A stretch of 64,000 bases of DNA from a virus (taxonomy: Duplodnaviria > Heunggongvirae > Uroviricota > Caudoviricetes), in IMG/VR virus record IMGVR_UViG_3300032050_000048, positions 8,476 through 72,475 of that record, one strand, 5' to 3'. Below the pieces are notes generated by a model that had not been told where the DNA came from, made no database searches, and saw only the letters and a program-made list of their open reading frames with translations. A program made the translations under genes and the position numbers. This document shows positions 26,896-43,832 of this stretch, in pieces. The first letter of the stretch is position 1. Each line of letters starts with the position of its first letter.

Positions 26896-27361
26896 TTAAA
26901 AAAACATTTGTCAATTAAAAAAAATAACCTATATTTGTAAAAGAAAATTAAACTTTTTGTAAAACACATATATTTATAACGAAATGAAAACAACACAGAT
27001 AAATATGAACTTTAATAACCCGTGTCAGAGCTGGGTCAAGTCGTATATTACGCTTCATAAATTTCCGTGTCTTTCATTTAATAGTACAATGTAACGTATC
27101 ATCAAATATAAAAGTGAAAGACCCGGATCCAAAAGACCCGGGTTTTTTGTTTTAAATTGGTCTCTTAGTTTAACTGGAAAAATACGACTCTTGTAAAGTT
27201 GAGTTGTCGGGTCAGTTCCGACAGGGACCTCAAAAAAGAAAATGTTCTTTGACATATCGGCCTTAAAAGGAGAGGTAATCACAGCGGCCTGTGATCCCGT
27301 CTTGAAAACGGTGAGTACCGAAAGGTATGGGGGTCGGCACCTCATCTCTCCTCTTTTATAA

Positions 27362-27435
27362 TGTCCTGTAGACGAATTGGCAGAGTCACCTCACTTTGAA
27401 CGAGGAGTATGGAGGTTCAACCCCTTCCGGGACAA
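27362..27435 (+). tRNA. tRNA-Gln (anticodon TTG)
   Basis: Cloverleaf read by hand. Acceptor tgtcctg/cgggaca (one G-U). Anticodon loop ctTTGaa. T arm ggagg-ttcaacc-ccttc. Confidence 0.65.
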
Positions 27436-27448
27436 CAATAATAAACAT

Positions 27449-27522
27449 AGGGTAGTTGGCTAATTGGCTAAGCCGCCTCGTTTGGGACGAGGAAGATGCA
27501 GGTTCAAGTCCTGTCTACCCTA
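27449..27522 (+). tRNA. tRNA-Pro (TGG)
   Basis: Acceptor agggtag/ctaccct. D stem ggct/agcc. Anticodon stem cctcg/cgagg, loop ttTGGga. T arm gcagg-ttcaagt-cctgt. Confidence 0.8.
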
Positions 27523-27539
27523 CTAAAAAACTATAAGTT

Positions 27540-27728
27540 ATGATAACAAACGAAGAATGTGAAAAAATTTCTATCAAAGGTAAGTTGAGTGGTTTAAATA
27601 ATTACTATATTAGCCTTGTTAAAATTAGTAAGGACCCATCATATCGTGGGGATTTAAGTGAAGAACTTAAAAGAGTGGAAACAGAAATAAAAATAAACAA
27701 TCAAAAACTAATGTCTTATGAAAAGTGA
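27540..27728 (+). CDS. Small hypothetical protein located between tRNA genes
   Basis: 62-aa ORF. Confidence 0.3.
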   Translation: MITNEECEKISIKGKLSGLNNYYISLVKISKDPSYRGDLSEELKRVETEIKINNQKLMSYEK

Positions 27729-27745
27729 CAAGTATGACAAACGAA

Positions 27746-27818
27746 ACCCCTCGTAGCTTAATCGGGAAAGCACCATACTTTTAATATGGGGAGAATCGGA
27801 TCGTAACCGGTCGGGGGG
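27746..27818 (+). tRNA. tRNA-Lys (TTT)
   Basis: Acceptor cccctcg/cgggggg (U-G). Anticodon stem ccata/tatgg, loop ctTTTaa. Unusual T loop atcgtaa. Confidence 0.7.
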
Positions 27819-27828
27819 ACAAAAAACA

Positions 27829-27902
27829 CACACTCTTAGCTCAGTTGGTAGTAGCGGTTGTTTTACATACAACAGGTCATAGGTTCAAGTCCTATAGGGT
27901 GT
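27829..27902 (+). tRNA. tRNA-Val (TAC)
   Basis: Acceptor acactct/agggtgt. Anticodon stem gttgt/acaac, loop ttTACat. T arm atagg-ttcaagt-cctat. Confidence 0.75.
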
Positions 27903-28036
27903 ACAATAGGTTGATTAGGGAAGTACATAACGTTAACGTGTCAGTAGTTCGTAGTTATGTGGGAGTTTTAACTGTCATAGTAAAGCTAATCGTAAAATCA
28001 GATGTCCACAGAACCATCTTCTGATTTCCTAAACTT

Positions 28037-28117
28037 GGGAGAGTTGAGCAATTGGTTGGCTCAGCAGACTGTAAATCTGTCGCGAAAGCCTTGGGGGTTC
28101 AAGTCCCTCCTCTCCCA
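28037..28117 (+). tRNA. tRNA-Tyr (GTA), bacterial type II with long variable arm
   Basis: Acceptor gggagag/ctctccc. D arm gagc-aattggttg-gctc. Anticodon loop ctGTAaa. 13-nt variable arm. Confidence 0.8.
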
Positions 28118-28126
28118 CAACAAAAT

Positions 28127-28199
28127 GGACAAGTAGCTCAATTGGTAGAGCAATCGGCTGTTAACCGATAGGTTGTAGGATCGTACCCTTCCTTGTCCG
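28127..28199 (+). tRNA. tRNA-Asn (GTT)
   Basis: Acceptor ggacaag/cttgtcc. D arm gctc-aattggta-gagc. Anticodon stem atcgg/ccgat, loop ctGTTaa. Confidence 0.8.
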
Positions 28200-28205
28200 C
28201 AATAA

Positions 28206-28278
28206 GTTCACGTAGCTCAATTGGTAGAGTGCCGATCTGATATGTCGGAGGTAATGGGATCGTAACCCGTCGTGAACA
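28206..28278 (+). tRNA. tRNA-Ile (GAT)
   Basis: Acceptor gttcacg/cgtgaac. Anticodon stem ccgat/gtcgg, loop ctGATat. T arm atggg-atcgtaa-cccgt. Confidence 0.75.
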
Positions 28279-28435
28279 CAAAAAGAGGAATAACTTGCGT
28301 AGGTGCCTCAAGGAACTGCAGTCCTACTACGCTCTATGGAAAGTAATCCCTGAAGGCGACGGGGCATGCCTGCTAAGCATTGCGATCGGTGAGAATCCGA
28401 TTGTGGATCGTTACCACTGCTTTCCTCAACATATG

Positions 28436-28508
28436 GTGTATGTAGCTCAATCGGTAGAGCGTTGGTTTGTGGAACCAAAGGTAATGGGATCGTAACCCAT
28501 CATACACA
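28436..28508 (+). tRNA. tRNA-His (GTG)
   Basis: Acceptor gtgtatg/catacac, with an extra G immediately 5' that could be the G-1. Anticodon stem ttggt/accaa, loop ttGTGga. Confidence 0.8.
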
Positions 28509-28703
28509 CAAATAGTTCACAACGGACAAGGCTTAGGCAAGTGAGTTGAGAATGAGTCGTAGGAGATATTACCAAAATGATTAAGTTCAATAAAGGAATC
28601 GTTTGGACTACAAAAAGTTTGATACAAGAGATTGGTGGGTGGCGAGTGGTTGACCAGAACTATTTAAATATCCGATGTCGGTCCCGAGCTAGGTCGGGCA
28701 TTT

Positions 28704-28774
28704 GCGTGGTACAGACAAGGTGTCGGGTAGGTCTCCAAAACCTCACTGGGTGGGTTCAATTCCTACACCACGCG
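28704..28774 (+). tRNA. tRNA-Trp-like (CCA) with degenerate D arm (possible pseudo-tRNA)
   Basis: Acceptor gcgtggt/accacgc, G73. Anticodon arm aggt-ctCCAaa-acct as in E. coli tRNA-Trp. T arm gtggg-ttcaatt-cctac. The D region does not fold canonically. Confidence 0.4.
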
Positions 28775-28820
28775 CTAAAAATAATTTTGGTGGTTAAAAA
28801 ACTTTTTGTATCTTTGAGAT

Positions 28821-29318
28821 ATGAAAAACAGACTACCATACGAAGCAACAGGAAAGGCAATCAAAGGGTATAGTGACTCTAAAATTGCAAAAGGTGAAAC
28901 AAACGATTGTGTTGTAAGAGCATTTGCGTCCTCATTTGAGGTTTCATATGACTATGCACACAAGTATGTCGCTGAAGAGTTTAATAGACAACCAAGAAGA
29001 GGGACATTTGGGACTCCATTAAAATTTGTTAAAATGTCCGATAACAGAGTTATGATAAACGGAAAAAAAGTTCATATTGTTGGTGAAAGAAAGAACGACT
29101 ATATGTTAAGATCTTTGGATTACCCCGTTAAGGTTAAAGGTGAAGTGGTTACAAGAAAAATGACTGTTGGTACCTTTGTTAAGAAAAATCCAAAGGGAAC
29201 TTTTTTTGTACTTGTTAAAGGTCACGCTTTTACAATTAAAGATGGTGTTGTTGTTGGAAACTTTGAGGATTCTCAAAAATTGAAAAGACCGATGCGTTGT
29301 GCATTTGAAATTAAATAA
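28821..29318 (+). CDS. Hypothetical protein
   Basis: 165-aa ORF inside the tRNA island. Confidence 0.5.
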   Translation: MKNRLPYEATGKAIKGYSDSKIAKGETNDCVVRAFASSFEVSYDYAHKYVAEEFNRQPRRGTFGTPLKFVKMSDNRVMINGKKVHIVGERKNDYMLRSLDYPVKVKGEVVTRKMTVGTFVKKNPKGTFFVLVKGHAFTIKDGVVVGNFEDSQKLKRPMRCAFEIK

Positions 29319-29320
29319 AA

Positions 29321-29396
29321 GGAACTATGGTGTAAGTGTGGTGTGTCACGTTGGACTGAAAATCCAAAGGTTGGGGTTCAACTCCCTATGGTTCCA
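29321..29396 (+). tRNA. tRNA-Phe (GAA) with an over-long D region
   Basis: Acceptor ggaacta/tggttcc. Anticodon stem ttgga/tccaa, loop ctGAAaa. T arm tgggg-ttcaact-cccta. The D region is 23 nt, GT-rich. Confidence 0.6.
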
Positions 29397-29419
29397 CAAA
29401 CAAATAAATTAAGGAAATT

Positions 29420-29875
29420 ATGAACAGAGTATTCAGAAAAGTAACCGGAGAATCTGTTCCTGACATTGTAAAACATACTGTTGATATATTAAAGGAATGT
29501 CCCTGGGTTGAGGTACACATTGGTACTGACTCTCAGAATCATAGAAGAAGTACTATATATGTTACAGCAATTGCTTATAGATTTGGGAATAGGGGGGTTC
29601 ATTATATCTATCACAAACAAAAGACAAAAAAGATTAAAGATAAATGGACCAGATTATGGAATGAGGCCGATTATTCAATTGAGGTTGCAGAGTGGTTAAC
29701 CACAAAAGTGAATGTAAAGGTGGAAATAGATTTAGATTACAACAGCGACTTAAAACACTTCAGCTCAAAATTAGTCCAACCGGCTGTTGGTTGGGCGACT
29801 TCACTGGGGTACAAGACAAACATTAAACCCCACAACCAAATTGCAACAAGGGCGGCAGACCACCACTGCCGCTAA
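29420..29875 (+). CDS. Hypothetical protein
   Basis: 151-aa ORF. Confidence 0.5.
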   Translation: MNRVFRKVTGESVPDIVKHTVDILKECPWVEVHIGTDSQNHRRSTIYVTAIAYRFGNRGVHYIYHKQKTKKIKDKWTRLWNEADYSIEVAEWLTTKVNVKVEIDLDYNSDLKHFSSKLVQPAVGWATSLGYKTNIKPHNQIATRAADHHCR

Positions 29876-29879
29876 TTAT

Positions 29880-29952
29880 GAGAGGTTGTCCGAGCGGCGT
29901 TAGGTCTGTGGTTGCAACCCACAGTACGGGGGTTCAAGTCCCTCACCTCTCT
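29880..29952 (+). tRNA. tRNA-Cys (GCA) with Ser-like D arm
   Basis: Acceptor gagaggt/acctctc. Anticodon stem tgtgg/ccaca, loop ttGCAac. T arm ggggg-ttcaagt-ccctc. Confidence 0.55.
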
Positions 29953-29961
29953 CAACAAAAT

Positions 29962-30035
29962 GCCCCTATGGCGGAATAGGTATACGCGTCAGATTTAGGA
30001 TCTGAATTTTGCAGGTTCAAGTCCTGCTAGGGGTA
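29962..30035 (+). tRNA. Type-I (short variable arm) tRNA with anticodon TAG (Leu codon CUA/CUG); identity uncertain
   Basis: Acceptor gccccta/taggggt, A73. D arm gcg-gaataggtata-cgc. Perfect anticodon stem tcaga/tctga with loop ttTAGga. 5-nt variable loop. T arm gcagg-ttcaagt-cctgc. Confidence 0.6.
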
Positions 30036-30403
30036 CAAAACTTTAAAAAAATAAACGATTATGAAAACGTATGACCAACATAAGATGAAAAGAACTCAGA
30101 TCAGGGAAGACCAGGTAAAAGCCGGATTCTTTGACGGTAGATTTGTTTCCCGGGTTGAGGAGTCAAAAAATACTTACACACGAAAGATTAAACATAAAAA
30201 ACAATTTTTTGTTTAATATTTACACTTTTTAAAAGTATTATATATTTATAACAAAAATAATAAAACTGCAAATGAAAAATTTACATATCATATCTTTGAG
30301 AGGGTTAGCAGAAGCTGAGGATTCTATCTATGTGAAGATGGTGTGATAAATTAATACATAAAATATTAGAAACCCATCTTCAAAAAAGATGGGTTTTTTG
30401 TTC

Positions 30404-30443
30404 TTTGACATATTGGAAATATAAAAAATTAAATATACCTTTG
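30404..30443 (+). promoter_or_regulatory. Promoter region: GTTCTTTGA motif and Bacteroidetes-type -7 element TAccTTTG, 5 nt upstream of ATG 30448
   Basis: TAccTTTG at 30436-30443 and TTTG/TTGG upstream; preceded by a terminator hairpin cccatcttcaaaaaagatggg at 30371-30399. Confidence 0.45.
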
Positions 30444-30447
30444 TTGT

Positions 30448-30741
30448 ATGGTAAAATTTAGTGATATAAAGTTTAAACCCCATAGCATGGGTGTTGGTCT
30501 TCAGGGTACTATTTTCTTTCCGGGAGGATATGGAATTTCTTGTGTTAGATTTAAATCTCCTTTTGGTGATAGATATATGTCTTATACAAGTAACGAAGAT
30601 GAGTGGGAAGTTGCAATCCTAAAAGGTGATGAAAACAACTGGGAACTTTGTTATGATACAATTTTAACAAATGATGTTTTGGGATACCAAACAAAAGAAG
30701 ATATTGAAAAAATTATGAGATATCTTATAAGATTACATTAA
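30448..30741 (+). CDS. Hypothetical protein
   Basis: 97-aa ORF. Confidence 0.45.
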   Translation: MVKFSDIKFKPHSMGVGLQGTIFFPGGYGISCVRFKSPFGDRYMSYTSNEDEWEVAILKGDENNWELCYDTILTNDVLGYQTKEDIEKIMRYLIRLH

Positions 30742-30745
30742 AAAG

Positions 30746-30777
30746 ATTTGGTAGATTAAAAAATTTGACATATCTTT
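30746..30777 (+). promoter_or_regulatory. Bacteroidetes-type promoter (TTTG, 20-nt spacer, TAtcTTTG)
   Basis: TTTG at 30746-30749, TAtcTTTG at 30770-30777. Followed by a gtaagacaaa leader and a GTTCTTTGA motif at 30844-30852. Confidence 0.5.
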
Positions 30778-30779
30778 GT

Positions 30780-31250
30780 AAGACAAACGATGGGGGTAGG
30801 AAGTTTAGAAATTGGTATCCTACCCCCAGATAAAGGGAAAAAAGTTCTTTGAAAACATTGTGATTTATTACACTAAAGCGAGGGGGAAAACTTTAGGTAG
30901 TATGTGTTGAACTAGCTTGCTCCGACTAGCACGGTCTAATCCGCCGTGAAGCATTTAATAATGGAGTAATGATGCTGATACATATAAATCACAACTTTTT
31001 AAAATATTGTGGTGGTAAGAAAAGGTGAACTCGTTAAGTTCATAGACCTGTTGACAAAAGATGGTGAAACGAGTGTGGTTGTCAACTACTGTATCACAGA
31101 TATAGCAGGCGGGAGGTAGAGGATCTCACCGGTCTCATAAGCCGGTTTAACTTGGTGCGATTCCAAGGCGTTGCTACAACAAAAAGGGTGGATAGGTGGG
31201 AGGGCCTTTCCTAAAAGACGGCACGCTAGGCCCGTGTTCACCCTTAAAAT
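30780..31250 (+). ncRNA. Candidate structured noncoding transcript A (about 470 nt between the promoter and tRNA-Asp; class unknown)
   Basis: No credible ORF. GC-enriched relative to the surrounding DNA. Hairpins such as gggggtagga...tcctaccccc. Ends at tRNA-Asp. Confidence 0.35.
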
Positions 31251-31322
31251 GGTCCATTGGTGTAGTGGCTAACATACATCCCTGTCACGGATGTGCTCCG
31301 GGTTCAATTCCCGGATGGACCG
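31251..31322 (+). tRNA. tRNA-Asp (GTC)
   Basis: Acceptor ggtccat/atggacc. Anticodon stem catcc/ggatg, loop ctGTCac. T arm ccggg-ttcaatt-cccgg. Confidence 0.8.
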
Positions 31323-31351
31323 CTAAACAATTAAAAACTAAACAAAATGAA

Positions 31352-31573
31352 ATGTTAAAGTTTAAACTGGGGTTGTGGGGTGTTGTAGGTACCACAATGA
31401 TTTACATCTACATAATGAATTTATTTTTCAGTTATGTAATCAACCGGGAGGTTGATGAAATCCTACAAATCGGTGCTAGTTTTATAGCTTTATTCTACAC
31501 CGTTTTTCAAATAAAGCTAATAGTAAAAGAAATAACAAATTTATTTAACAAAAAAGAAAAAGAAAATGATTAG
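31352..31573 (+). CDS. Small membrane protein
   Basis: The track ORF 31196..31573 overlaps tRNA-Asp, so an internal in-frame ATG at 31352 was chosen. MLKFKLGLWGVVGTTMIYIYIMNLFF is hydrophobic. Confidence 0.4.
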   Translation: MLKFKLGLWGVVGTTMIYIYIMNLFFSYVINREVDEILQIGASFIALFYTVFQIKLIVKEITNLFNKKEKEND

Positions 31574-32468
31574 TTTGATTGTAACATTAGTGTTTTTGAT
31601 TATCGCAGGGGTGATGATTGTAAAAGGTAAAATTAACGATGAGTCCTCAAGTATTCTAAAAGGAGTTGTTGTTGGTGTTGTGGGTGTATTGATTGGCGTA
31701 TTCCAACCATACTCACTTGAGAGAATTGACGCCGGTCACAAAGGTATTGTGGTTAACTTGTCCGGATCTGAAAGAGGGGTTGCTTCATATCAGTACAAAA
31801 CTGGGTGGGTTGTTTATAACACCTGGTTCACGCAAGTTCTTGAGTTCCCAACCTTTCAACAACATATTGAGTATGATGATCAGGTTGTAATTACAAAGGG
31901 TGGGTTCTCAGCAACTATTAAACCATCGTTTAACTACTCGTTGAAACCGGAAGCAATTGGTGATATGTTTGAAAACCTACGATTGGGTGTTAAAGAAATT
32001 GAACAAGGGTGGCTTAAAAACGCAATTGTTGGGGCGGTTAATGATGAAGCAAATAAATGGGAAGTTGATAGTATTTTTTCTAATCGTCAACAGTTTGAAG
32101 CGGCAATTGTTGTTGAGTGTAATAAACGATTAACAAAGTGGTTTGATGTGTCACAACTTAGAACAAACATTACACCACCGGAGGCGCTCCAGGAATCAAT
32201 TATTGCAAAAACAAAAGCTATCCAACAAGCTGAAGCCTCCGAGCAACAAGCAATTGCTGCAATTGCAGAAGGAAAACGTAAGGTGGCTGTCGCAAGAGCC
32301 GACTCGGCAGAAACAATTATCAACGCAAAAGCGGCATCACTTGCAATTGAGTTGAAACAACAAAAACTAACACCGATGTATATTGAGTATTTGAAGGCAA
32401 ATGCTTGGGATGGTAAACTTCCAACAACAATGGCAGGCAGTTCTGGAACGTTTTTGAATATTAAATAA
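31566..32468 (+). CDS. SPFH/band-7 (prohibitin/stomatin-like) family protein
   Basis: N-terminal TM helix, then GHKGIVVNLSGSERGV...; a coiled-coil AIQQAEASEQQAIAAIAEGKRKVAVARADSAE typical of the SPFH fold. Confidence 0.7.
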   Translation: MISLIVTLVFLIIAGVMIVKGKINDESSSILKGVVVGVVGVLIGVFQPYSLERIDAGHKGIVVNLSGSERGVASYQYKTGWVVYNTWFTQVLEFPTFQQHIEYDDQVVITKGGFSATIKPSFNYSLKPEAIGDMFENLRLGVKEIEQGWLKNAIVGAVNDEANKWEVDSIFSNRQQFEAAIVVECNKRLTKWFDVSQLRTNITPPEALQESIIAKTKAIQQAEASEQQAIAAIAEGKRKVAVARADSAETIINAKAASLAIELKQQKLTPMYIEYLKANAWDGKLPTTMAGSSGTFLNIK

Positions 32469-32473
32469 AAAGA

Positions 32474-32505
32474 TTTGGAGGATTGAAAAATTCTCCTTAT
32501 CTTTG
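32474..32505 (+). promoter_or_regulatory. Bacteroidetes-type promoter (TTTG, 20-nt spacer, TAtcTTTG)
   Basis: TTTG at 32474-32477, TAtcTTTG at 32498-32505. Followed by a gtaaaacaaa leader and GTTCTTTGA at 32526-32534. Confidence 0.5.
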
Positions 32506-32509
32506 TAAA

Positions 32510-32775
32510 ACAAATAAGGAAAGAAGTTCTTTGAAATAATAGATTGGTAAGATAGCAGATAGACCTACGTCAGCAGACTCTCATAGAGAATCAGAAATGA
32601 TGAGTAAAACGGAGCCCCTATCAGACTAACGTGTTGAGGAGGTACTCAAAGTTTTCCGGGAGGTTAACTGGTAATAAACGATGGTTTGGGTAGAACGGAT
32701 GTTAAAGGCGAGGTGTGGGTAGTAAGGATGGGGTAACCCACGAATAAGTAAATCTTAAGGTCTTACCATTTTTTA
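32510..32775 (+). ncRNA. Candidate noncoding RNA B (about 265 nt, promoter to terminator-like hairpin plus T-run)
   Basis: No ORF. Ends with gtaag...cttac followed by ATTTTTT around 32746-32775. Confidence 0.35.
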
Positions 32776-32928
32776 AAAATCTAAATCACGGGTGGCTCCC
32801 TTAATAGTTAAGGCTGACCTTAAGCATCTGACGCATGTCTATACAGGGGGCGAAAGTGATTTAAAATATTGTAATGAACAACGCGACCGCAGGAGTTGTA
32901 CCTTTATGGTTTTGTAATGTGGTTTTAT

Positions 32929-33003
32929 GTTCCGTTCGTCTAGCTGGTTTAGGACACTTCCCTTTCACGGAAGAGATCATGGGTTCAAATCCCATACGGA
33001 ATA
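32929..33003 (+). tRNA. tRNA-Glu (TTC)
   Basis: Acceptor gttccgt/acggaat. D arm gtc-tagctggtttag-gac. Anticodon stem cttcc/ggaag, loop ctTTCac. T arm atggg-ttcaaat-cccat. Confidence 0.8.
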
Positions 33004-33013
33004 CAAAAAATAT

Positions 33014-33087
33014 GGTCCCGTAGCTCAGCTGAATAGAGCAACGCCCTTCTAAGGCGAAGGTCACAGGTTTGAATCCTGTCGGGACTA
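33014..33087 (+). tRNA. tRNA-Arg (TCT)
   Basis: Acceptor ggtcccg/cgggact. D arm gctc-agctgaata-gagc. Anticodon loop ctTCTaa. T arm acagg-tttgaat-cctgt. Confidence 0.8.
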
Positions 33088-33233
33088 CAAAAAATTAAAA
33101 GTTATGAATTATACAATAGAAAAGAAATGTCATGCTTGGATAGGAATATGGTGGCAAGTTAAGGAAGATAAAGAGATAGTCTTTAAGAGCAAACGAAAAA
33201 AAGATTGTGTGTTCTACGTGAACAGTAAAAAAT

Positions 33234-33338
33234 AGTCAGGTGGCGGAATTGGTAGACGCACCTCAACACCCTGGGGTTGAGACATTAAATGAGGGTTAAC
33301 AATGGGTCTCTTATAGGTTCAAATCCTGTCCTGACTAC
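33234..33338 (+). tRNA. Atypical 105-nt type-II tRNA-like gene (Leu-type D arm; anticodon region expanded or unresolved)
   Basis: Acceptor agtcagg/cctgact. D arm gcggaattggtagacgc is identical to E. coli tRNA-Leu. T arm atagg-ttcaaat-cctgt. About 18 nt too long between the D and T arms; no clean 7-nt anticodon loop. Confidence 0.35.
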
Positions 33339-33601
33339 ACGTGGTAGGGTTCATCACCCCCTAGTGTGCCCCACATAATGAGAAACGGAGTGATATCCGT
33401 AGGGGAACGTACATTGTCGTATAGGGAGAACGACTGGGAAAGTAAGTTGTATTAGATACAGTGGAAACGCACATCTCAACAGAGGTGGACTGAAAGTTTG
33501 CCCGACCTGGGTTGAGGACGAAAGAAACTATTTCTAACCTACCTTTTTGGTGGGGACAACCGGAGCACCTGTAAGCTGAATAAATTAGGGTGTTAACAAA
33601 G
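33339..33601 (+). ncRNA. Candidate structured spacer RNA E between the two atypical type-II tRNA-like genes
   Basis: About 260 nt, GC-enriched, no ORF. Confidence 0.25.
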
Positions 33602-33690
33602 GCAAGTGGCGAAATCGGCAGACGCTAAGGTAGATCTAACTAAGATTGTACCGAGACAATGTAAAAGTTGTCGTATAGGTTCAAATCCTT
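33602..33690 (+). tRNA. Atypical type-II tRNA-like gene (Leu/Ser-type D arm gcgaaatcggcagacgc; anticodon unresolved)
   Basis: Acceptor aggcaag/cttgtct (G3-U70). T arm atagg-ttcaaat-ccttt. A hairpin gacaa...ttgtc in the variable region. No canonical anticodon arm found. Confidence 0.3.
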
Positions 33691-33879
33691 TCTTGTCTAC
33701 AAATACAATTAAAAGATGAATATGTTATTGTTTGTATCATTTGTTTTGTTTATACTTTTAATAGGTAGAAAAAAAAGAAAATATTAACTTCAGTACCCAT
33801 ACAGCGGTGAGACGGGCTAAGTAAGATACGATTCCTCGGGGCTGGGAGTAGAATGCTGAAGAAATATTTTCTAAAATAT

Positions 33880-33959
33880 GCTCCGATGGTGAAATTGGTA
33901 TACACGATGCGTTTAAGCCGCATTCCTACGGGGTGAGGGTTCAAATCCCTCTCGGAGTA
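33880..33959 (+). tRNA. tRNA-Leu (TAA), type II
   Basis: Acceptor gctccga/tcggagt. Anticodon stem atgcg/cgcat, loop ttTAAgc. 11-nt variable arm. T arm gaggg-ttcaaat-ccctc. Confidence 0.75.
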
Positions 33960-34062
33960 CTGTTGTGTTATTCCCTTGAGAAAGGAATTACGGTGGGATA
34001 TGGTCTTGATTTGGATTTAACCTAGTATGAATCACAACACAGAGGACTTCTCATCCTCAACC

Positions 34063-34136
34063 GGACCTTTAACTCAGTTGGTCAGAGTGCTTGACTCATA
34101 ATCAAGGAGTCGTAGGTTCAAACCCTACAAGGTCCA
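34063..34136 (+). tRNA. tRNA-Met (CAT); could instead be an fMet or Ile2 (lysidine) type
   Basis: Acceptor ggacctt/aaggtcc. D arm actc-agttggtca-gagt. Anticodon stem cttga/tcaag, loop ctCATaa. T arm gtagg-ttcaaac-cctac. Confidence 0.75.
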
Positions 34137-34151
34137 CACCGCTTAAGATGC

Positions 34152-35951: not shown

Positions 35952-36773
35952 ATGAAAAAAATACTTACAGAGTCTGAAGTTAAAAACATTAAAAATATGT
36001 ACTCAATTAATGAGTCATTACTTTCTGATGTTGTTGACAAAATAAAAGATTTACCGGATTTTGAAAATATCAAAAAAAAATTTAAGGAAGTTACAGGAAT
36101 TGATCTTGAATCAAAGGTCAATATTGGTGGCAAATCATCTAACACCAATTATAAAGGAAAAGTTGACTTTAGTCGTGGAGGGTTTAGTAGTGAACAAAAG
36201 GAAAATATTGAATACCTTTTATCTGAAATGGAGAAAAAGGGGATTAAGGACCCTTACACTCAAATAGGGATTTTATCTGTAATTATGAAAGAAACTAACT
36301 TCATTCAAAAAAGTGAAGTTGACTATTCAGATACCGCAAACTCAAGAATACGAAACACATTCGGTAAAAGAGTACGAAAATATTCCGATGAACAACTAAA
36401 TAAATTAAAAGCAAACCCAAAGAGATTTTTTAATGTTGTTTATGCAAATATAATTGGAAATGGTGATGTAGAAAGTGGTGATGGATATAAGTATCGTGGG
36501 AGAGGGTTTAATCAGTTAACAGGGAAGGGTAACTATAGAAAATATGGTTCACTTGCCGGTATTGATTTGGTAAGTAATCCAGATAAATTAAATGATAGAG
36601 AAGTTGCGGTAAAAGTTGCGTTACAATTTTTAACAAAAGGAAAAACAGATTTTCCTAAATTTGATAGTAAAAAAGAAGCAGCAGAATATTTTGCTGATAT
36701 AAATGCTGGTGGTGGTACAAGTACTCACAGATCAAATGCGGTTAAAGCGTCTGAAAATTTTGATATTAAATAA
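35952..36773 (+). CDS. Glycoside hydrolase family 19-like endolysin (peptidoglycan hydrolase) with leader-family N-terminus (MKKILTESEVKNIKNMY)
   Basis: YRGRGFNQLTGKGNYRKYGSLAGIDLVSNPDKL matches the GH19 catalytic core pattern (YKGRGxIQLTGxxNY). Confidence 0.65.
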   Translation: MKKILTESEVKNIKNMYSINESLLSDVVDKIKDLPDFENIKKKFKEVTGIDLESKVNIGGKSSNTNYKGKVDFSRGGFSSEQKENIEYLLSEMEKKGIKDPYTQIGILSVIMKETNFIQKSEVDYSDTANSRIRNTFGKRVRKYSDEQLNKLKANPKRFFNVVYANIIGNGDVESGDGYKYRGRGFNQLTGKGNYRKYGSLAGIDLVSNPDKLNDREVAVKVALQFLTKGKTDFPKFDSKKEAAEYFADINAGGGTSTHRSNAVKASENFDIK

Positions 36774-36776
36774 AGT

Positions 36777-37388
36777 ATGGAGAATTTATCTGGAATAATT
36801 ATTGCTTTTATAACTGGAGTCTTGGGACCGATTTCAATCCTACTTATTAAAAACTATTTTGATAAGAAAAAAAAGAAACCGGATATGGTTAGAGAAACAC
36901 TTAAAGTTTCTGAACTTGTAAATCAAAAAATAGAACATATTAAAGAAGAGTTTAATGCTGATCGTGTTTGGGTTACTCAATTTCATAATGGAGGCAACTT
37001 TTACCCAACTGGAAAATCAATGGCAAAATTCTCAATAATATATGAAGCTGTAAACCCTGGAATATCCTCAGTGCAGTCAAACTTTCATAATATACCAGTT
37101 AATCTATTTTCAAAATCAATCAATGAATTACTTGTAAATGACGTTATTGAAATTACAGATTATAAAGATGAAACAATTGCAACTTTCGGTCTTAAGTATA
37201 TTGCCGAAGACACTGGCTGTAAATCTGGTTATTTATTTGCAATTAAAACAATTGATGAAAAATTTATTGGTACATTAGGTCTTGATTACACAAAAAAGAA
37301 AACAAAACTTAATATTGAATCAATAAATCATCTTCAGGTTCACGCATCATCTTTGGGTGGTGTTTTAATGAACCATTTAAATCAATAA
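36777..37388 (+). CDS. N-terminally membrane-anchored protein in the lysis cassette
   Basis: TM helix LSGIIIAFITGVLGPISILLI followed by a KKKKKP stop-transfer. Confidence 0.5.
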   Translation: MENLSGIIIAFITGVLGPISILLIKNYFDKKKKKPDMVRETLKVSELVNQKIEHIKEEFNADRVWVTQFHNGGNFYPTGKSMAKFSIIYEAVNPGISSVQSNFHNIPVNLFSKSINELLVNDVIEITDYKDETIATFGLKYIAEDTGCKSGYLFAIKTIDEKFIGTLGLDYTKKKTKLNIESINHLQVHASSLGGVLMNHLNQ

Positions 37389-37418
37389 TTTTTACAATCT
37401 TAGTATATTTATTGTAGT

Positions 37419-38102
37419 ATGAATTTAGTCTATCCATTAGAAAAAAAAGGAGTTAAAACATCTGGATTTGGGAATAGAAAGCACCCGGTTAAAGGTAGCA
37501 CTATTCACCATAATGGTATTGATATTGGTATTCCAGACGGAACAAGTGTTATATCAGTCGCTAACGGTGAGGTTGTTAGATCAGATATGAAAGACAAAAA
37601 TGGGTATGGAAATTTTATTATTGTAAAACATAATGTTGATGGTGAAACCTTTTTTTCTTGTTATGCACATTTAACAAAAAGACTTGTTGATGTTGGTGAT
37701 AAGGTTAAAAAAGGAGAGAAAATTGCCGAATCCGGTGGAGGTCAGGGTATTTCTGGTGGTGGGGGTATGTCAACAGGACCACATTTACATTTTGAGATAA
37801 GAAAATCAGTTACTGGTGGTTGGGTAAATCCAGAACCATACATTAATGGAGCACCAATCACAAAAGGTTTTGGTGGTAAGGAAAATAAAAAAGATTTGAG
37901 TGATGATGGTTTAGCGGCAACACTAATGAGTATCGCTAATGATTATGTCCTTAAACCAGTTGGGGATTTGTTGGACAAATCAGAAACAATCAAGTTATTC
38001 AAAAAAATGGCTGCCGATGTTGAGAAGGAATACGAAGCATCCGATAAGGGAATGTGGGAACAAAATGAGAGATTAAAAAAAATTATTAAAAAAATTCTCT
38101 AA
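37419..38102 (+). CDS. M23 family peptidase (lysostaphin-like endopeptidase)
   Basis: HNGIDIGIPDGTSV...GNFIIVKHNVDGETFFSCYAHL...GPHLHFEIRK carries the HxxxD and HxH M23 signatures. Confidence 0.8.
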   Translation: MNLVYPLEKKGVKTSGFGNRKHPVKGSTIHHNGIDIGIPDGTSVISVANGEVVRSDMKDKNGYGNFIIVKHNVDGETFFSCYAHLTKRLVDVGDKVKKGEKIAESGGGQGISGGGGMSTGPHLHFEIRKSVTGGWVNPEPYINGAPITKGFGGKENKKDLSDDGLAATLMSIANDYVLKPVGDLLDKSETIKLFKKMAADVEKEYEASDKGMWEQNERLKKIIKKIL

Positions 38103-38404: not shown

Positions 38405-39372
38405 AAACAAATTCGGAAACGTCCGAAATCGTTCTTTGAAAAATTAGAATATCCATTCAGAATGTTTGATGATGAAATCCTTGCGGTTGATTCTGAGTAA
38501 CAAACTGATAAAGATATTTGGCCGTATATAGTCAATAAATAAACTGGGAAACCAGGATAAAGTGGGTCAGTAGTGTAACTGATCTGCGGTTTGGGTAACC
38601 GAACTTAAGTATACAAGCGGGATACCGTTTAACCTTTAGTACCGAGGGCAACGCTGTAGGGAAAGTGGTTAGATGATTGGGCGATGTGGGTCGTCCGGTT
38701 GAGGTGGGAACACCAATAGGAATAACTCGTAGGGATATTGCAAAAAATAAGATTATCCAATTTTATTATTGCGTGTCCCAATATCAGAGGATACTTAAAA
38801 CCGAAAGGTATGATAACAAACAGGTGGTGCTGACATTATCCTTGACCCTTGCCTACCAAGGCATAAGTCACGAAGTAATCTTAAAATATTGAGATGGGGA
38901 CATTTCAGAGAGTAGTTGAGTATCGGCTCGTTCAAAAGATGAGCTGGCTCTGGTGGCGGACCACTACTTTCATAATCCACGACACAAAAACCTAAGAAAA
39001 AATTATGAAATTAATTTAATCAGAAAGGAAAAGTGTCCGTCAGGTTTGGATGAAAGGTGACTACATAGTAATGAGCCGTTCATTGCACACAAGGATCCCA
39101 AGTCTAAGTGTAATTATCCGAAAAACCTTTAGTCCCGCAAGGACGAACTGGGGAGGCATCCTCGGAAAGAGTCAAGTAAGGTGAGAGTAGTCCAAATCTC
39201 AAGGAGTGGTTCCCCTAAGTGACCGTCACTGAGAAATACTTCTCAAAAGGAAGTGGATAGGAGTAGAATAAATAATGACTCTAAAGGTTCTCAATAAAAC
39301 GTGTAATCTCAACGTTCTTTTTAGGTTTAATCTTATAAGACAAAAAAAATTAGTAGGGACAGGAAACTGATC
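38405..39372 (+). ncRNA. Candidate large (about 0.95 kb) structured noncoding RNA, promoter to terminator (GOLLD/ROOL-like?)
   Basis: No ORF over 71 aa, and the reading frames are broken. GC-enriched. Ends with the aggga...tccct hairpin plus TTTTTTT at 39345-39372. Sits beside the tmRNA and the tRNA island. Confidence 0.35.
39345..39372 (+). terminator. Rho-independent terminator of the large candidate ncRNA
   Basis: Hairpin aggga-caggaaactga-tccct followed by TTTTTTT. Confidence 0.55.
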
Positions 39373-39467: not shown

Positions 39468-39858
39468 TGGTGGAGATGCGGGGCTCCGACTCCCCGGTCC
39501 AGCTCGTCTTGTTTAAAAGACCACTACATGCTTAGGTTGGTATTTTCTAATACCCCAAAATAGTTGATTTGTTCTTTTCCATCGTAAATCAACAACCAAT
39601 GGTTTCTAATCCGGATTTAGAGAGCCGACCAGGTTGCTCTATAAAACTACGACTTCTGTTGCTAGGCTATATGTCTGCCGGCCCCCGGTTTTTGTTGCGA
39701 TTACGCTACAGCAACCTCAGAAGTGCGGATTAACCCAACAGCTTCCATTTTGTTTAGCACATTGCCATTTAAAAAGTGAATCAGTTTTTAACGAGATTAA
39801 TTCAGTCCCGACATGCTCCTTTTATTCAACCAACGCCTGTCAAATCCAATACATCCCC
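39468..39858 (-). ncRNA. ssrA: tmRNA (transfer-messenger RNA, SsrA), one-piece, CCA-encoded
   Basis: Minus-strand 5' end GGGGATGTATTGGATTTGACAGG matches the E. coli tmRNA 5' end GGGGCUGAUUCUGGAUUCGACGGG. The 3' end CTAAGCATGTAGT...GGACCGGGGAGTCGGAGCCCCGCATCTCCACCA matches the conserved 3' end. Acceptor ggggatg/catctcc has G3-U70. Internal tag frame ...TSEVAVA-TAA. Confidence 0.85.
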
Positions 39859-41776: not shown

Positions 41777-41799
41777 AGGAGGGTTTTTAACCCTCCTTT
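41777..41799. terminator. Bidirectional terminator between convergent peptidase and Clp ATPase genes
   Basis: Hairpin aaggagggtttttaaccctcctt. Confidence 0.6.
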
Positions 41800-43832
41800 T
41801 TCTTTCTACCCCTTTTAGGTTTATTCTCAATAAGAACATCAATCTTAATTTCCTTATCTACAACTGTCAATTTATAATCAACATCTTCTAGAACTTCATT
41901 TAGTAATATTTTCTCAGAGATAAGGTCTTCAATTTTATCCTGGATTGCCCTTTTAATTGGTCTTGCACCAAATTGTTCATCAAACCCAACCTCAGATATC
42001 AATTCAACAACTGACTCATCGTATGTAATTTTATATTTCATTGACTCAATTCTGTTAACTAACTTCTCAATTTCAATTTTAACAATCCGGTCAACGTGCT
42101 CTTTTTTAAGCGAGTTAAAGACAATAACGTCATCAATTCTATTTAGGAATTCTGGAGCGAAGAACTTACTTAATTCTTTTTTGAGGATATCTCTTTTTTC
42201 TTCTTCTCTTACTGCTTCACTACTATTTGATTTAAACCCAACTCCAGTTCCAAAATCCTGTAATTTTCTAACACCAATATTTGATGTCATAATAATTAAA
42301 CAATTTTTGAAGTTAATTTTTCTTCCAAGTCCGTCGGTCATATGCCCGTCATCAAGCATTTGAAGAAGTGTTGAGAAGATATCTTTATTTGCCTTTTCAA
42401 TCTCATCAAATAAGATAACAGAGTATGGTTTATTTTTAACCTGTTCTGTAAGCTGTCCACCCTCTTCGTGACCAACATATCCTGGAGGAGAACCGATAAG
42501 CCTTGATATAGTATGTTTTTCCTGATATTCAGACATATCAACACGAATCAAACTATCTTCACTACCAAAAATTTCTTTTGCTAGTTTCTTTGCAAGATAT
42601 GTTTTACCAACACCGGTTGACCCAAGGAAGATAAATGAACCAATTGGTCTATTTGGGTCCTTAATTCCAATTCTATTTCTTCTAATGGATTTTGATATTT
42701 TTGTTACCGCTTCAGCCTGACCAATTACATAGCTATTTAGTGCGTTCTCTAAATTAACAAGAGAGTTTTTCTCGTCAACATTAATTTTGCTTACCGGGAT
42801 TTTAGTCATTTTAGAAACAACCTCATAAATTAAATCTTCCGGAATTACTCTTTTACTATTTCTAAGTTCTTCCTCAAATTTTAATCTTTCGGCATCAAGT
42901 GATGACATTACTGATTTTTCCCGGTCCCTTAACTCAGCAGCCATTTCGTATTTCTGTTTTTTTATAACGTCAGACTTCTCCTTTTTAATTTCAAGAAGTT
43001 CTTGTTTTAGATTTTCAATACTTTCAGGAAGTTTAATATCAATTTGCATTCTTGACCCAACCTCATCAATAATATCAAAAGCTTTATCCGGAAACTCACG
43101 ATCTGTAATATATCTATCGGCAAGTTCTACACATAAAAGAAGTGATTCGTCTGAATATGTTACCTTGTGATGTTCTTCATACTTTTCTTTACTATTTTTT
43201 AAAATTTGAAAAGTTTCAGCCTTTGTTGATGGTTCTACAATTACTTTCTGGAATCTTCTCTCAAGAGCTCCATCCTTCTCAAAATGCTTTCTATATTCAT
43301 CAAGGGTTGTAGCACCAATACATTGGATTTCACCCCTAGAAAGGGCCGGTTTAAAGATGTTTGAGGCATCAAGTGAACCAGAACTATTACCAGCACCAAC
43401 CATTGTATGAATCTCATCAATAAAAAGAATAATGTTTGGATTACTTTGAAGTTCCTCAATTATTACTTTCATTCTTTCCTCAAATTGTCCACGATATTTT
43501 GTACCGGCAACAATTGAATTCATCTCAAGGGAAACAATTCTTTTCTCTGAAAGATTTTTAGGACATTCACCACTATGAATCATCATTGCCAACCCTTCTA
43601 CAATTGCTGTTTTACCACAACCTGGTTCACCGATAATAATAGGGTTGTTTTTCTTTCTTCTAGATAAAATTTGTGCAATTCTAATAATTTCATCTTCTCT
43701 ACCTATTACAGGGTCTAATTTACCTTCTTGAGCTAACTTATTTAAGTCTTTACTAAAGTTGTCTAGAACCGGAGTTCCACTATCACTTTTTTTCTTGTTC
43801 TTGTCGTTGTCATCAATGAATTCTATTGCCAT
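41787..43832 (-). CDS. ClpC/ClpA-like class I AAA+ unfoldase (two ATPase domains, UVR-type middle domain, VGF ClpP-docking loop; no Clp_N domain)
   Basis: Walker A motifs [15 protein letters not shown] and [15 protein letters not shown]. Middle domain [21 protein letters not shown] tripeptide loop. N-terminus begins about 50 residues before the first Walker A. Confidence 0.85.

Follow-up and report, generated by a model that had tools for sequence, protein, structure and literature searches.

The gene at positions 29962 to 30035 of the window (the whole 64,000-nucleotide stretch of viral DNA analysed here) very probably encodes a working phage leucine tRNA, in which a Leu body of the bacterial type carries a 5-nt loop in place of the long variable arm and keeps the features that LeuRS reads. 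The gene is an ordinary part of a large phage tRNA array, with no change of the genetic code involved. It does not point to a changed code, because the evidence says that CUN is read as leucine and because hundreds of other phages carry similar genes. The textbook rule that every bacterial-type tRNA-Leu has a long arm fails for phages and mobile tRNA arrays, and pipelines or readers who take a short Leu tRNA as a signal of recoding will meet false alarms.

From the features described below, the following course of events is proposed. The gene is presumably expressed; the host LeuRS would charge its product with leucine, and the host CCA-adding enzyme would supply the 3' end, since the gene encodes none. 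Through U34 the tRNA would then read CUA, CUG and probably also the other two CUN codons, CUU and CUC. Together with the tRNA-Leu(UAA) of the same 17-tRNA array, the gene could thus give an AT-rich phage its own cover for all six Leu codons.

The tRNA gene and its array

The original prediction had read from the letters a tRNA with a UAG anticodon, a 5-nt variable loop and A73, and this is confirmed by ARAGORN, which called tRNA-Leu(tag) at window 29962-30036, by Rfam, and by the minimum free energy (MFE) fold. The match to RF00005 at 29962-30035 (+) covers the full model (1-71) with 66.0 bits against a gathering score of 29 (E 4e-12), and the MFE fold is a cloverleaf of -27.4 kcal/mol (z = -2.76), with 3 of 200 shuffles folding equally well. 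The parts of the gene, read from the sequence unless another basis is given, are as follows.

29962..30035 (+): tRNA-Leu(UAG), type I body, 74 nt, no encoded CCA (ARAGORN, Rfam, MFE fold, Leu isotype model)
29962-29968 with 30028-30034 (+): acceptor stem GCCCCTA/TAGGGGT
29969-29970 (+): U8 G9
29971-29987 (+): Leu-type D-arm, 17 nt, GCGG AATAGGTAT ACGC, with A14, A15, G18, G19 and A20a
29989-30005 (+): anticodon arm TCAGA-TTTAGGA-TCTGA (stem 29989-29993 with 30001-30005)
29996-29998 (+): anticodon TAG
30006-30010 (+): variable loop ATTTT, 5 nt, instead of a long arm (Rfam alignment)
30011-30027 (+): T arm GCAGG-TTCAAGT-CCTGC
30035 (+): discriminator A73

The cloverleaf, described beforehand as clean, deserves that word as a whole but not in its details. 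A G-U wobble at pair 1:72 opens the acceptor stem, and the D stem consists of three Watson-Crick pairs (GCG/CGC) plus G13-A22, closing a 9-nt loop, AATAGGTAT. By alignment, G1-U72 is common to the window's long-arm Leu(UAA) and to E. coli leuZ, and a D stem of three pairs plus G13-A22 is present in ordinary Leu tRNAs too. The variable loop ends in U48, which forms the Levitt pair with A15. A refolding with a long arm, named in advance as a possible refutation, is ruled out, since 74 nt are too short to hold one; the MFE fold is the type I cloverleaf.

The window has a G+C content of 31.5%, and its source is a large uncultured phage. Around the gene we found the following features.

27159..34137 (+): array of 17 tRNA genes, all on one strand, which includes the short tRNA-Leu(UAG) (ARAGORN, Rfam)
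29420-29875 (+): RNase H-like protein, 151 aa, PF04308 (E 1.6e-24), between the Phe and Cys tRNA genes (profile match)
29880..29953 (+): tRNA-Cys(GCA), ending 8 nt upstream of the short tRNA-Leu(UAG) (ARAGORN, Rfam)
33880..33960 (+): tRNA-Leu(UAA), the second Leu tRNA of the window, 81 nt, with a long arm (ARAGORN, alignment)
35952-38102 (+): weak glycoside hydrolase 19 (chitinase-like) match beside a Peptidase M23 protein, just past the array (domain match)
38908-39315 (+): GOLLD RNA, full-length, RF02032 319 bits, E 1.4e-90, about 5 kb downstream of the array (Rfam)
39468-39858 (-): phage-encoded tmRNA, RF00023 86.7 bits, adjoining the GOLLD RNA on the opposite strand (Rfam)
41787-43832 (-): ClpC-like double AAA+ ATPase, 681 aa (alignment)

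Within the array, U34 is found in every tRNA for a four-codon box (Thr, Pro, Val and Leu-CUN), and the Ile tRNA is a GAU gene of 74 nt. Tools found no Ala, Gly, Ser or Trp tRNA in the window; relatives carry Gly, Ala, Trp and Ser tRNAs in the corresponding region of their arrays. The ORFs interleaved among the tRNA genes encode the RNase H-like (PF04308) and SPFH/Band 7 proteins, and none of them suggests a dedicated synthetase or tRNA modifier. Two of the relatives discussed below (L114 and L118) have the Phe tRNA followed directly by Cys, with no RNase H-like gene between.

Past the array, the GH19-like and Peptidase M23 pair may serve cell-wall-degrading functions, and the tmRNA at 39468-39858 (-) drew no ARAGORN call. 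The ClpC-like ATPase aligns with S. aureus ClpC only from residue 149 on, and thus seems, from its sequence, to be without the ClpC N-terminal domain. In viral contigs it is very common, with at least 597 confirmed relatives; an identical copy occurs on contigs of up to 170 kb and relatives on IMG/VR contigs of up to 321 kb. When the 7.5-kb array was compared with GenBank phages by megablast, a tRNA-Asn fragment was the sole match, and hence the array has no close sequenced relative there.

Leucine identity and the family of short-arm genes

In the present study, the identity of the body was assessed with isotype profiles built from 2,095 tRNAs harvested from the fetched loci, with one HMM per isotype and the anticodon masked. 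These models are home-made, with phage tRNAs labelled by their anticodon, and are not the curated models of tRNAscan-SE; as a classifier, they assigned 271 of 297 held-out tRNAs correctly (91%). The Leu profile was trained on long-arm Leu genes alone. On these home-made models the gene nevertheless scored 41.5 bits as Leu over its full length, against 21.8 for Cys, 19.9 for Gln and 11.0 for Arg. A mismatch between anticodon and isotype, which the idea of recoding had led one to look for, is thus replaced by a lead of about 20 bits for Leu, the outcome named beforehand as refuting recoding. Leu was also the best isotype, by the same home-made HMMs, for 87 of 101 unique short Leu tRNAs.

The same identity comes out when the gene is aligned with leuV and leuZ of E. 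coli K-12, both taken by coordinate. Positions 8-27 of the gene, TGGCGGAATAGGTATACGCG, which take in U8, G9 and G26 beside the D-arm, match 18 of 20 bases of leuV, TGGCGGAATTGGTAGACGCG, at equal length; the T-loop core, GGTTCAAGTCC, is identical in leuV and leuZ, and A73 is common too. As a whole the 74-nt gene had no blastn match in 28 Gb of E. coli genomes. The Leu identity set of E. coli consists of A73 (the major determinant), the A15-U48 Levitt pair, G18G19, A20a and the tertiary pairs between D and T loops, whereas the long arm is no identity element and its sequence and fold are uncorrelated with leucylation; SerRS depends on the size of the arm and LeuRS does not (PMC9976931). All of the E. 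coli LeuRS elements are present in the gene (A73, U8-A14, A15-U48, G18G19, A20a, U54-A58, U55 and C56), and what is absent is the long variable arm, that is, the class II shape, the variable loop being 5 nt. Judged by these positions, we class it as a tRNA-Leu by function and as type I by shape. The first of the two readings offered beforehand, a Leu tRNA which escapes the LeuRS rules on the arm, was therefore right about a Leu tRNA without the arm and wrong about the escape: no identity rule is bypassed, because the arm is no identity element for E. coli LeuRS and the gene keeps the real ones.

Such genes are far from rare. A scan of IMG/VR for a Leu D-arm, a UAR anticodon loop and NTTTT, written as one degenerate pattern, matched more than 118 viral contigs. 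With a short Leu tRNA defined as one of at most 79 nt, the fetched loci held 127 with UAG, 22 with UAA, 29 with CAA and one with GAG; the CAA and GAG genes co-occur independently of the search, because they could not match a UAR pattern. A73 is present in 100 of the 101 unique short Leu tRNAs and a 17-nt D-arm in 98, the variable loop nearly always ends in U, and pair 1:72 is G-C in 58 and G-U, as here, in 37. Eighty-four family members align without gaps, and among them U8, A14, A15, G18, G19, A20a, U48 and A73 are invariant and the columns of the LeuRS elements are invariant or at least 90% conserved, although for the UAG and UAA members this conservation is partly built in where the pattern fixed parts of the D-arm, anticodon loop and variable loop. 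U48 (column 49) is invariant also in the 14 members whose variable loop lay outside the constraint of the pattern.

In the family cloverleaf as a whole, 99.4% of the cells are paired against 32-48% in slid controls. The acceptor, anticodon and T stems were left unconstrained by the pattern, with the proviso that ARAGORN detection itself favours paired stems. Changes have occurred on both sides in 19 of 20 family pairs, and covariation is seen in 7/7 acceptor pairs and 4/5 T-stem pairs.

Outside the viral contigs, genomes taken one per species (about 185,000 species) gave the pattern at 44 loci, of which 42 are short Leu tRNAs; most of them sit in dense multi-isotype tRNA arrays, about half come from Bacteroidota, and the closest are identical to the gene at 57 of 74 positions. 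By blastn against GenBank phages, short Leu genes turned up in phages infecting Vibrio, Maribacter, E. coli (TrudiRoth) and Leptolyngbya, the last with both UAG and UAA. A query with the family majority sequence matched 80 GenBank phage records, and ARAGORN bore out Leu genes of 74 nt followed by CCA in 4MG (E. coli), PVP-SE1 (Salmonella) and Thalassa (Vibrio), in Cronobacter phage S13 (UAA and CAA) and in Xanthomonas phage X1 (CAG). The short-arm genes of the named phages are all annotated plainly as tRNA-Leu. Megablast with the TrudiRoth tRNA matched three records, T5 not among them, so that classical T5 is unsupported as a carrier of a short Leu gene.

Several other oddities turned up in the same material. 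A Tolypothrix sp. contig of 1069 nt (L289) has four Leu tRNAs in a row, UAA of 80 nt and GAG, CAG and UAG of 75-77 nt. Arrays in which Leu has lost its arm hold about 23 distinct tRNA-Ile(UAU) genes of 90-97 nt with an extra arm of about 20 nt and a conserved loop CAGAT[TA]A (viral loci L168, L169, L171, L181, L187, L196, L208, L226 and others; genome loci L290 and L306). Four tRNAs with the amber-reading anticodon CUA, labelled Pyl by ARAGORN, occur in the harvested phage arrays (L312 and others), as do several tRNAs with 8-nt anticodon loops.

A further comparison came from the relatives of the array, which were anchored on the SPFH gene. Their order Phe-Cys-Leu(UAG) is kept. In the window, L089, L118 and L086, the last of which has an identical gene, the Leu slot holds a short gene of 75 nt; L114 has a normal 83-nt long-arm Leu(UAG) there, and the more distant relatives L130-L134 have a long-arm Leu(UAG) of 84 nt. 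L114 and L118 are 94.8-98% identical over 500 nt on each side of the slot, and 58.5% identical within the Leu gene.

L118:1474-1548 (short) versus L114:2042-2124 (long): exchanged Leu(UAG) alleles, with boundaries at the gene ends

The tRNA gene alone was here exchanged as a cassette. The T arm and most of the acceptor stem of the L118 allele are common to the window's gene, so that the short allele moves as a unit and is not the product of a local deletion. Since short and long alleles fill one slot in near-identical backgrounds, the comparison argues that both do the same job.

Across the 126 loci with a short Leu tRNA, short genes make up 179/240 Leu, 0/109 Ser and 4/52 Tyr, the Tyr calls being doubtful. 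These counts fit a loss confined to isotypes whose synthetase can do without the arm, as bacterial LeuRS can and SerRS cannot, and the simplest reading is a permitted loss of the arm, neutral or driven by compaction.

Another scenario would leave the gene a leucine tRNA and have the loss of the arm selected: effectors that read or cut the arm would spare the phage copy, and the decoding of Leu would go on. Recognition of the class II variable arm has lately been demonstrated for several defence systems. The PtuAB of Septu and of retron-Eco7 cleaves tRNA-Tyr in its variable arm, a cut which the tRNA-Tyr of T5 escapes through its distinctive variable loop (PMC13096335); MenT3 requires the long loop of tRNA-Ser (PMC11541572); and the abortive-infection toxin AbiEii reportedly has a likely preference for class II long-arm tRNAs (bioRxiv 10.64898/2026.01.19.700257). 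Short Leu genes are, moreover, common in viral contigs and scarce in the species genomes, where the matches lie mostly in tRNA arrays, and the exchange of a tRNA gene alone between near-identical relatives is the turnover expected under an arms race. However, we found no effector that targets tRNA-Leu through its arm, and no defence or anti-defence gene linked to the tRNA within the window; a neutral loss, which LeuRS would permit, accounts for this distribution as well, the retained arm of Ser included; and many such phages still have, as well as the short Leu(UAG), a Leu(UAA) with a long arm. We therefore hold selection by defence to be a tentative explanation of this gene, rather less than probable, and the broader notion that the short-arm family is a widespread, unrecognised class of anti-defence tRNAs to be doubtful. 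Leucine is the one class II isotype able to shed its arm, LeuRS not needing it. Because defence systems recognise the class II arm, the cultured coliphages 4MG and TrudiRoth allow a direct test of whether its loss protects.

Could the gene instead be a decaying or non-translational copy, i.e., a pseudogene, a decoy or a processing signal? It encodes no CCA, and no promoter-like site lies directly upstream of it, as such a copy would lead one to expect. But CCA is unencoded in 10 of the 101 unique family members as well; compensatory changes keep every stem paired, both in the family at large and in the close lineage (L089 and L118 compared with the window); the tertiary and identity positions are invariant; and the gene is retained in relatives and follows tRNA-Cys closely in a same-strand array. 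A decayed or non-translational copy is accordingly very unlikely.

The meaning of CUN codons

The second reading offered beforehand was that some amino acid besides leucine is loaded onto the tRNA, the phage thereby reassigning CUN. Its sole point is the unusual short body on a Leu anticodon. We examined it through the codons of two window genes, those of the ClpC-like ATPase and of the 300-aa SPFH protein inside the array, as aligned with 159 relatives whose identity lies below 97%. The loci anchored on the ClpC-like gene (L006-L085) end about 2 kb short of the tRNA and served for this test only. The share of aligned positions at which relatives have a Leu codon was as follows, TTA and TTG being the controls.

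Window CTA: 67%, from only 10 CTA codons in the window copies; commonest partners TTA (277) and TTG (134)
Window CTT: 79%
Window CTC: 99%
Window TTA (control): 81%
Window TTG (control): 65.5%
Window ATT: 11%
Window GTT: 4%
Window ATG: 17%
Window TTT: 2.6%

Because CUN interchanges freely with codons read by an ordinary long-arm tRNA, it would stand for the same amino acid as TTA and TTG. In the alignment with the cellular ClpC of S. aureus (PDB 6em8), window CTA falls on Leu at 4/7 sites and on Ile at 2/7, CTT on Leu at 16/28 and TTA on Leu at 11/16. The use of CUA and CUG, compared ORF by ORF in place of early with late genes, showed no significant unevenness across 36 ORFs of the window (chi-square p = 0.46). 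In these alignments the CUN codons behave as leucine codons and nothing points to reassignment, with the sample of CTA being small.

To these observations the body of the tRNA adds its own. It has neither G3-U70, by which it might pass for Ala, nor the long arm that would suit Ser, and most other synthetases read anticodon bases, ones which UAG does not offer (PMC9976931). With a Leu-type body, with CUN aligned to leucine and the use of CUA/CUG not uneven, and with the slot filled by a long-arm Leu(UAG) in a relative that is nearly identical, the recoding that had been proposed falls away, and we consider it highly improbable. Just as improbable is that a type I tRNA of another isotype, e.g., Arg, gained a UAG anticodon: a tRNA-Arg(CCU) at L005:304-376 (LR756511, a 595-kb uncultured phage) does have the identical acceptor GCCCCTA/TAGGGGT and about 76% identity overall, but its D-arm is one base shorter, whereas the 17-nt D-arm, A20a and U48 of our gene are Leu features, and the Arg model lies far below that of Leu. 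The preferred reading thus stays that of a leucine tRNA without the arm.

Comparison with known systems

Set beside canonical type II tRNA-Leu (E. coli leuV CAG and leuZ UAA, the window's Leu(UAA) and the Leu(UAG) of L114), the gene agrees in the length of the D-arm, the T loop, A73, A14, A15, G18G19 and A20a, and with L114 it has both the anticodon arm and the genomic slot in common. Where the canonical genes have a variable stem-loop of 13-18 nt, it has ATTTT. Its acceptor and T stems are unlike those of the syntenic long-arm allele, and it is thus no simple in-place deletion of that allele.

The view that bacterial tRNA-Leu is always type II, from which the original prediction set out, is contradicted by the short Leu genes in harvested loci and in loci of bacterial genomes, and also by a chromosomal example: the type I tRNALeu(CAA) of S. 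coelicolor stands beside long-arm isoacceptors and accepts leucine from the LeuRS of that species (Fan et al. 2019, PMC6614811). Like the phage gene, it has a 5-nt variable loop and coexists with long-arm Leu, in our case the Leu(UAA) of the same array. The Streptomyces gene differs in its CAA anticodon, in a variable loop of ACAGC (hence C48) and in that A73 is no identity element there (PMC6614811), while in the phage family U48 and A73 are nearly invariant, the anticodon is mostly UAG, and the genes lie on phages and tRNA arrays; the likeness noted here is one of architecture. In vitro, the LeuRS of E. coli and that of S. purpurogeneiscleroticus failed to charge the Streptomyces short-arm tRNALeu(CAA) (PMC6614811), and so a short arm is not tolerated by every pairing of LeuRS and tRNA. 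The difference of C48 from U48 may explain this failure, and the coliphages 4MG and TrudiRoth offer, in addition, a test of the very E. coli LeuRS that is reported not to charge the Streptomyces tRNA.

Arm-deleted E. coli tRNALeu is described, in the account that PMC9976931 gives of earlier work (Asahara 1993, 1998; Tocchini-Valentini 2000; Larkin 2002), as remaining a LeuRS substrate if A73 and the D/T-loop tertiary pairs are intact. On that account these are laboratory constructs, whereas the phage family, with the same features kept, is natural and widespread. Also close are the short Leu genes of the named phages (4MG, TrudiRoth, PVP-SE1, Thalassa, 1.208.B of Vibrio, S13, X1, Panino of Maribacter and Lbo-JY46 of Leptolyngbya), which agree with it in their 74-nt layout and invariant positions and, for the most part, in the loop ATTTT; they differ in being 55-80% identical to our gene, in that most encode CCA, and in their anticodons, which include UAA, CAA and CAG as well.

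Animal mitochondria have a dedicated LeuRS and a tRNA-Leu of floppy structure, for which no sequence relationship to the phage gene is to be expected. Their tRNA-Leu is type I too, and is recognised via A73 and A14 (PMC9976931). A parallel of another sort is the tRNA-Tyr of phage T5, a class II phage copy with a variable region unlike that of the host, which resists retron-Eco7 PtuAB (PMC13096335); it is of a different isotype, its arm is kept and its resistance has been demonstrated, whereas Leu is without a known nuclease.

In the searchable literature, outside which most subscription journals lie, we found no paper that describes the short-arm Leu tRNAs of phages as a group. A paper on tRNA arrays does not discuss Leu arms (PMC8421152), and a cyanobacterial survey lists 5-nt variable loops of Leu without comment (PMC6933170). 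Nevertheless, since the tRNALeu(CAA) of S. coelicolor and the type I Leu of animal mitochondria are documented, the short-arm tRNA-Leu is a known, if little-discussed, kind, and one that is common in phages.
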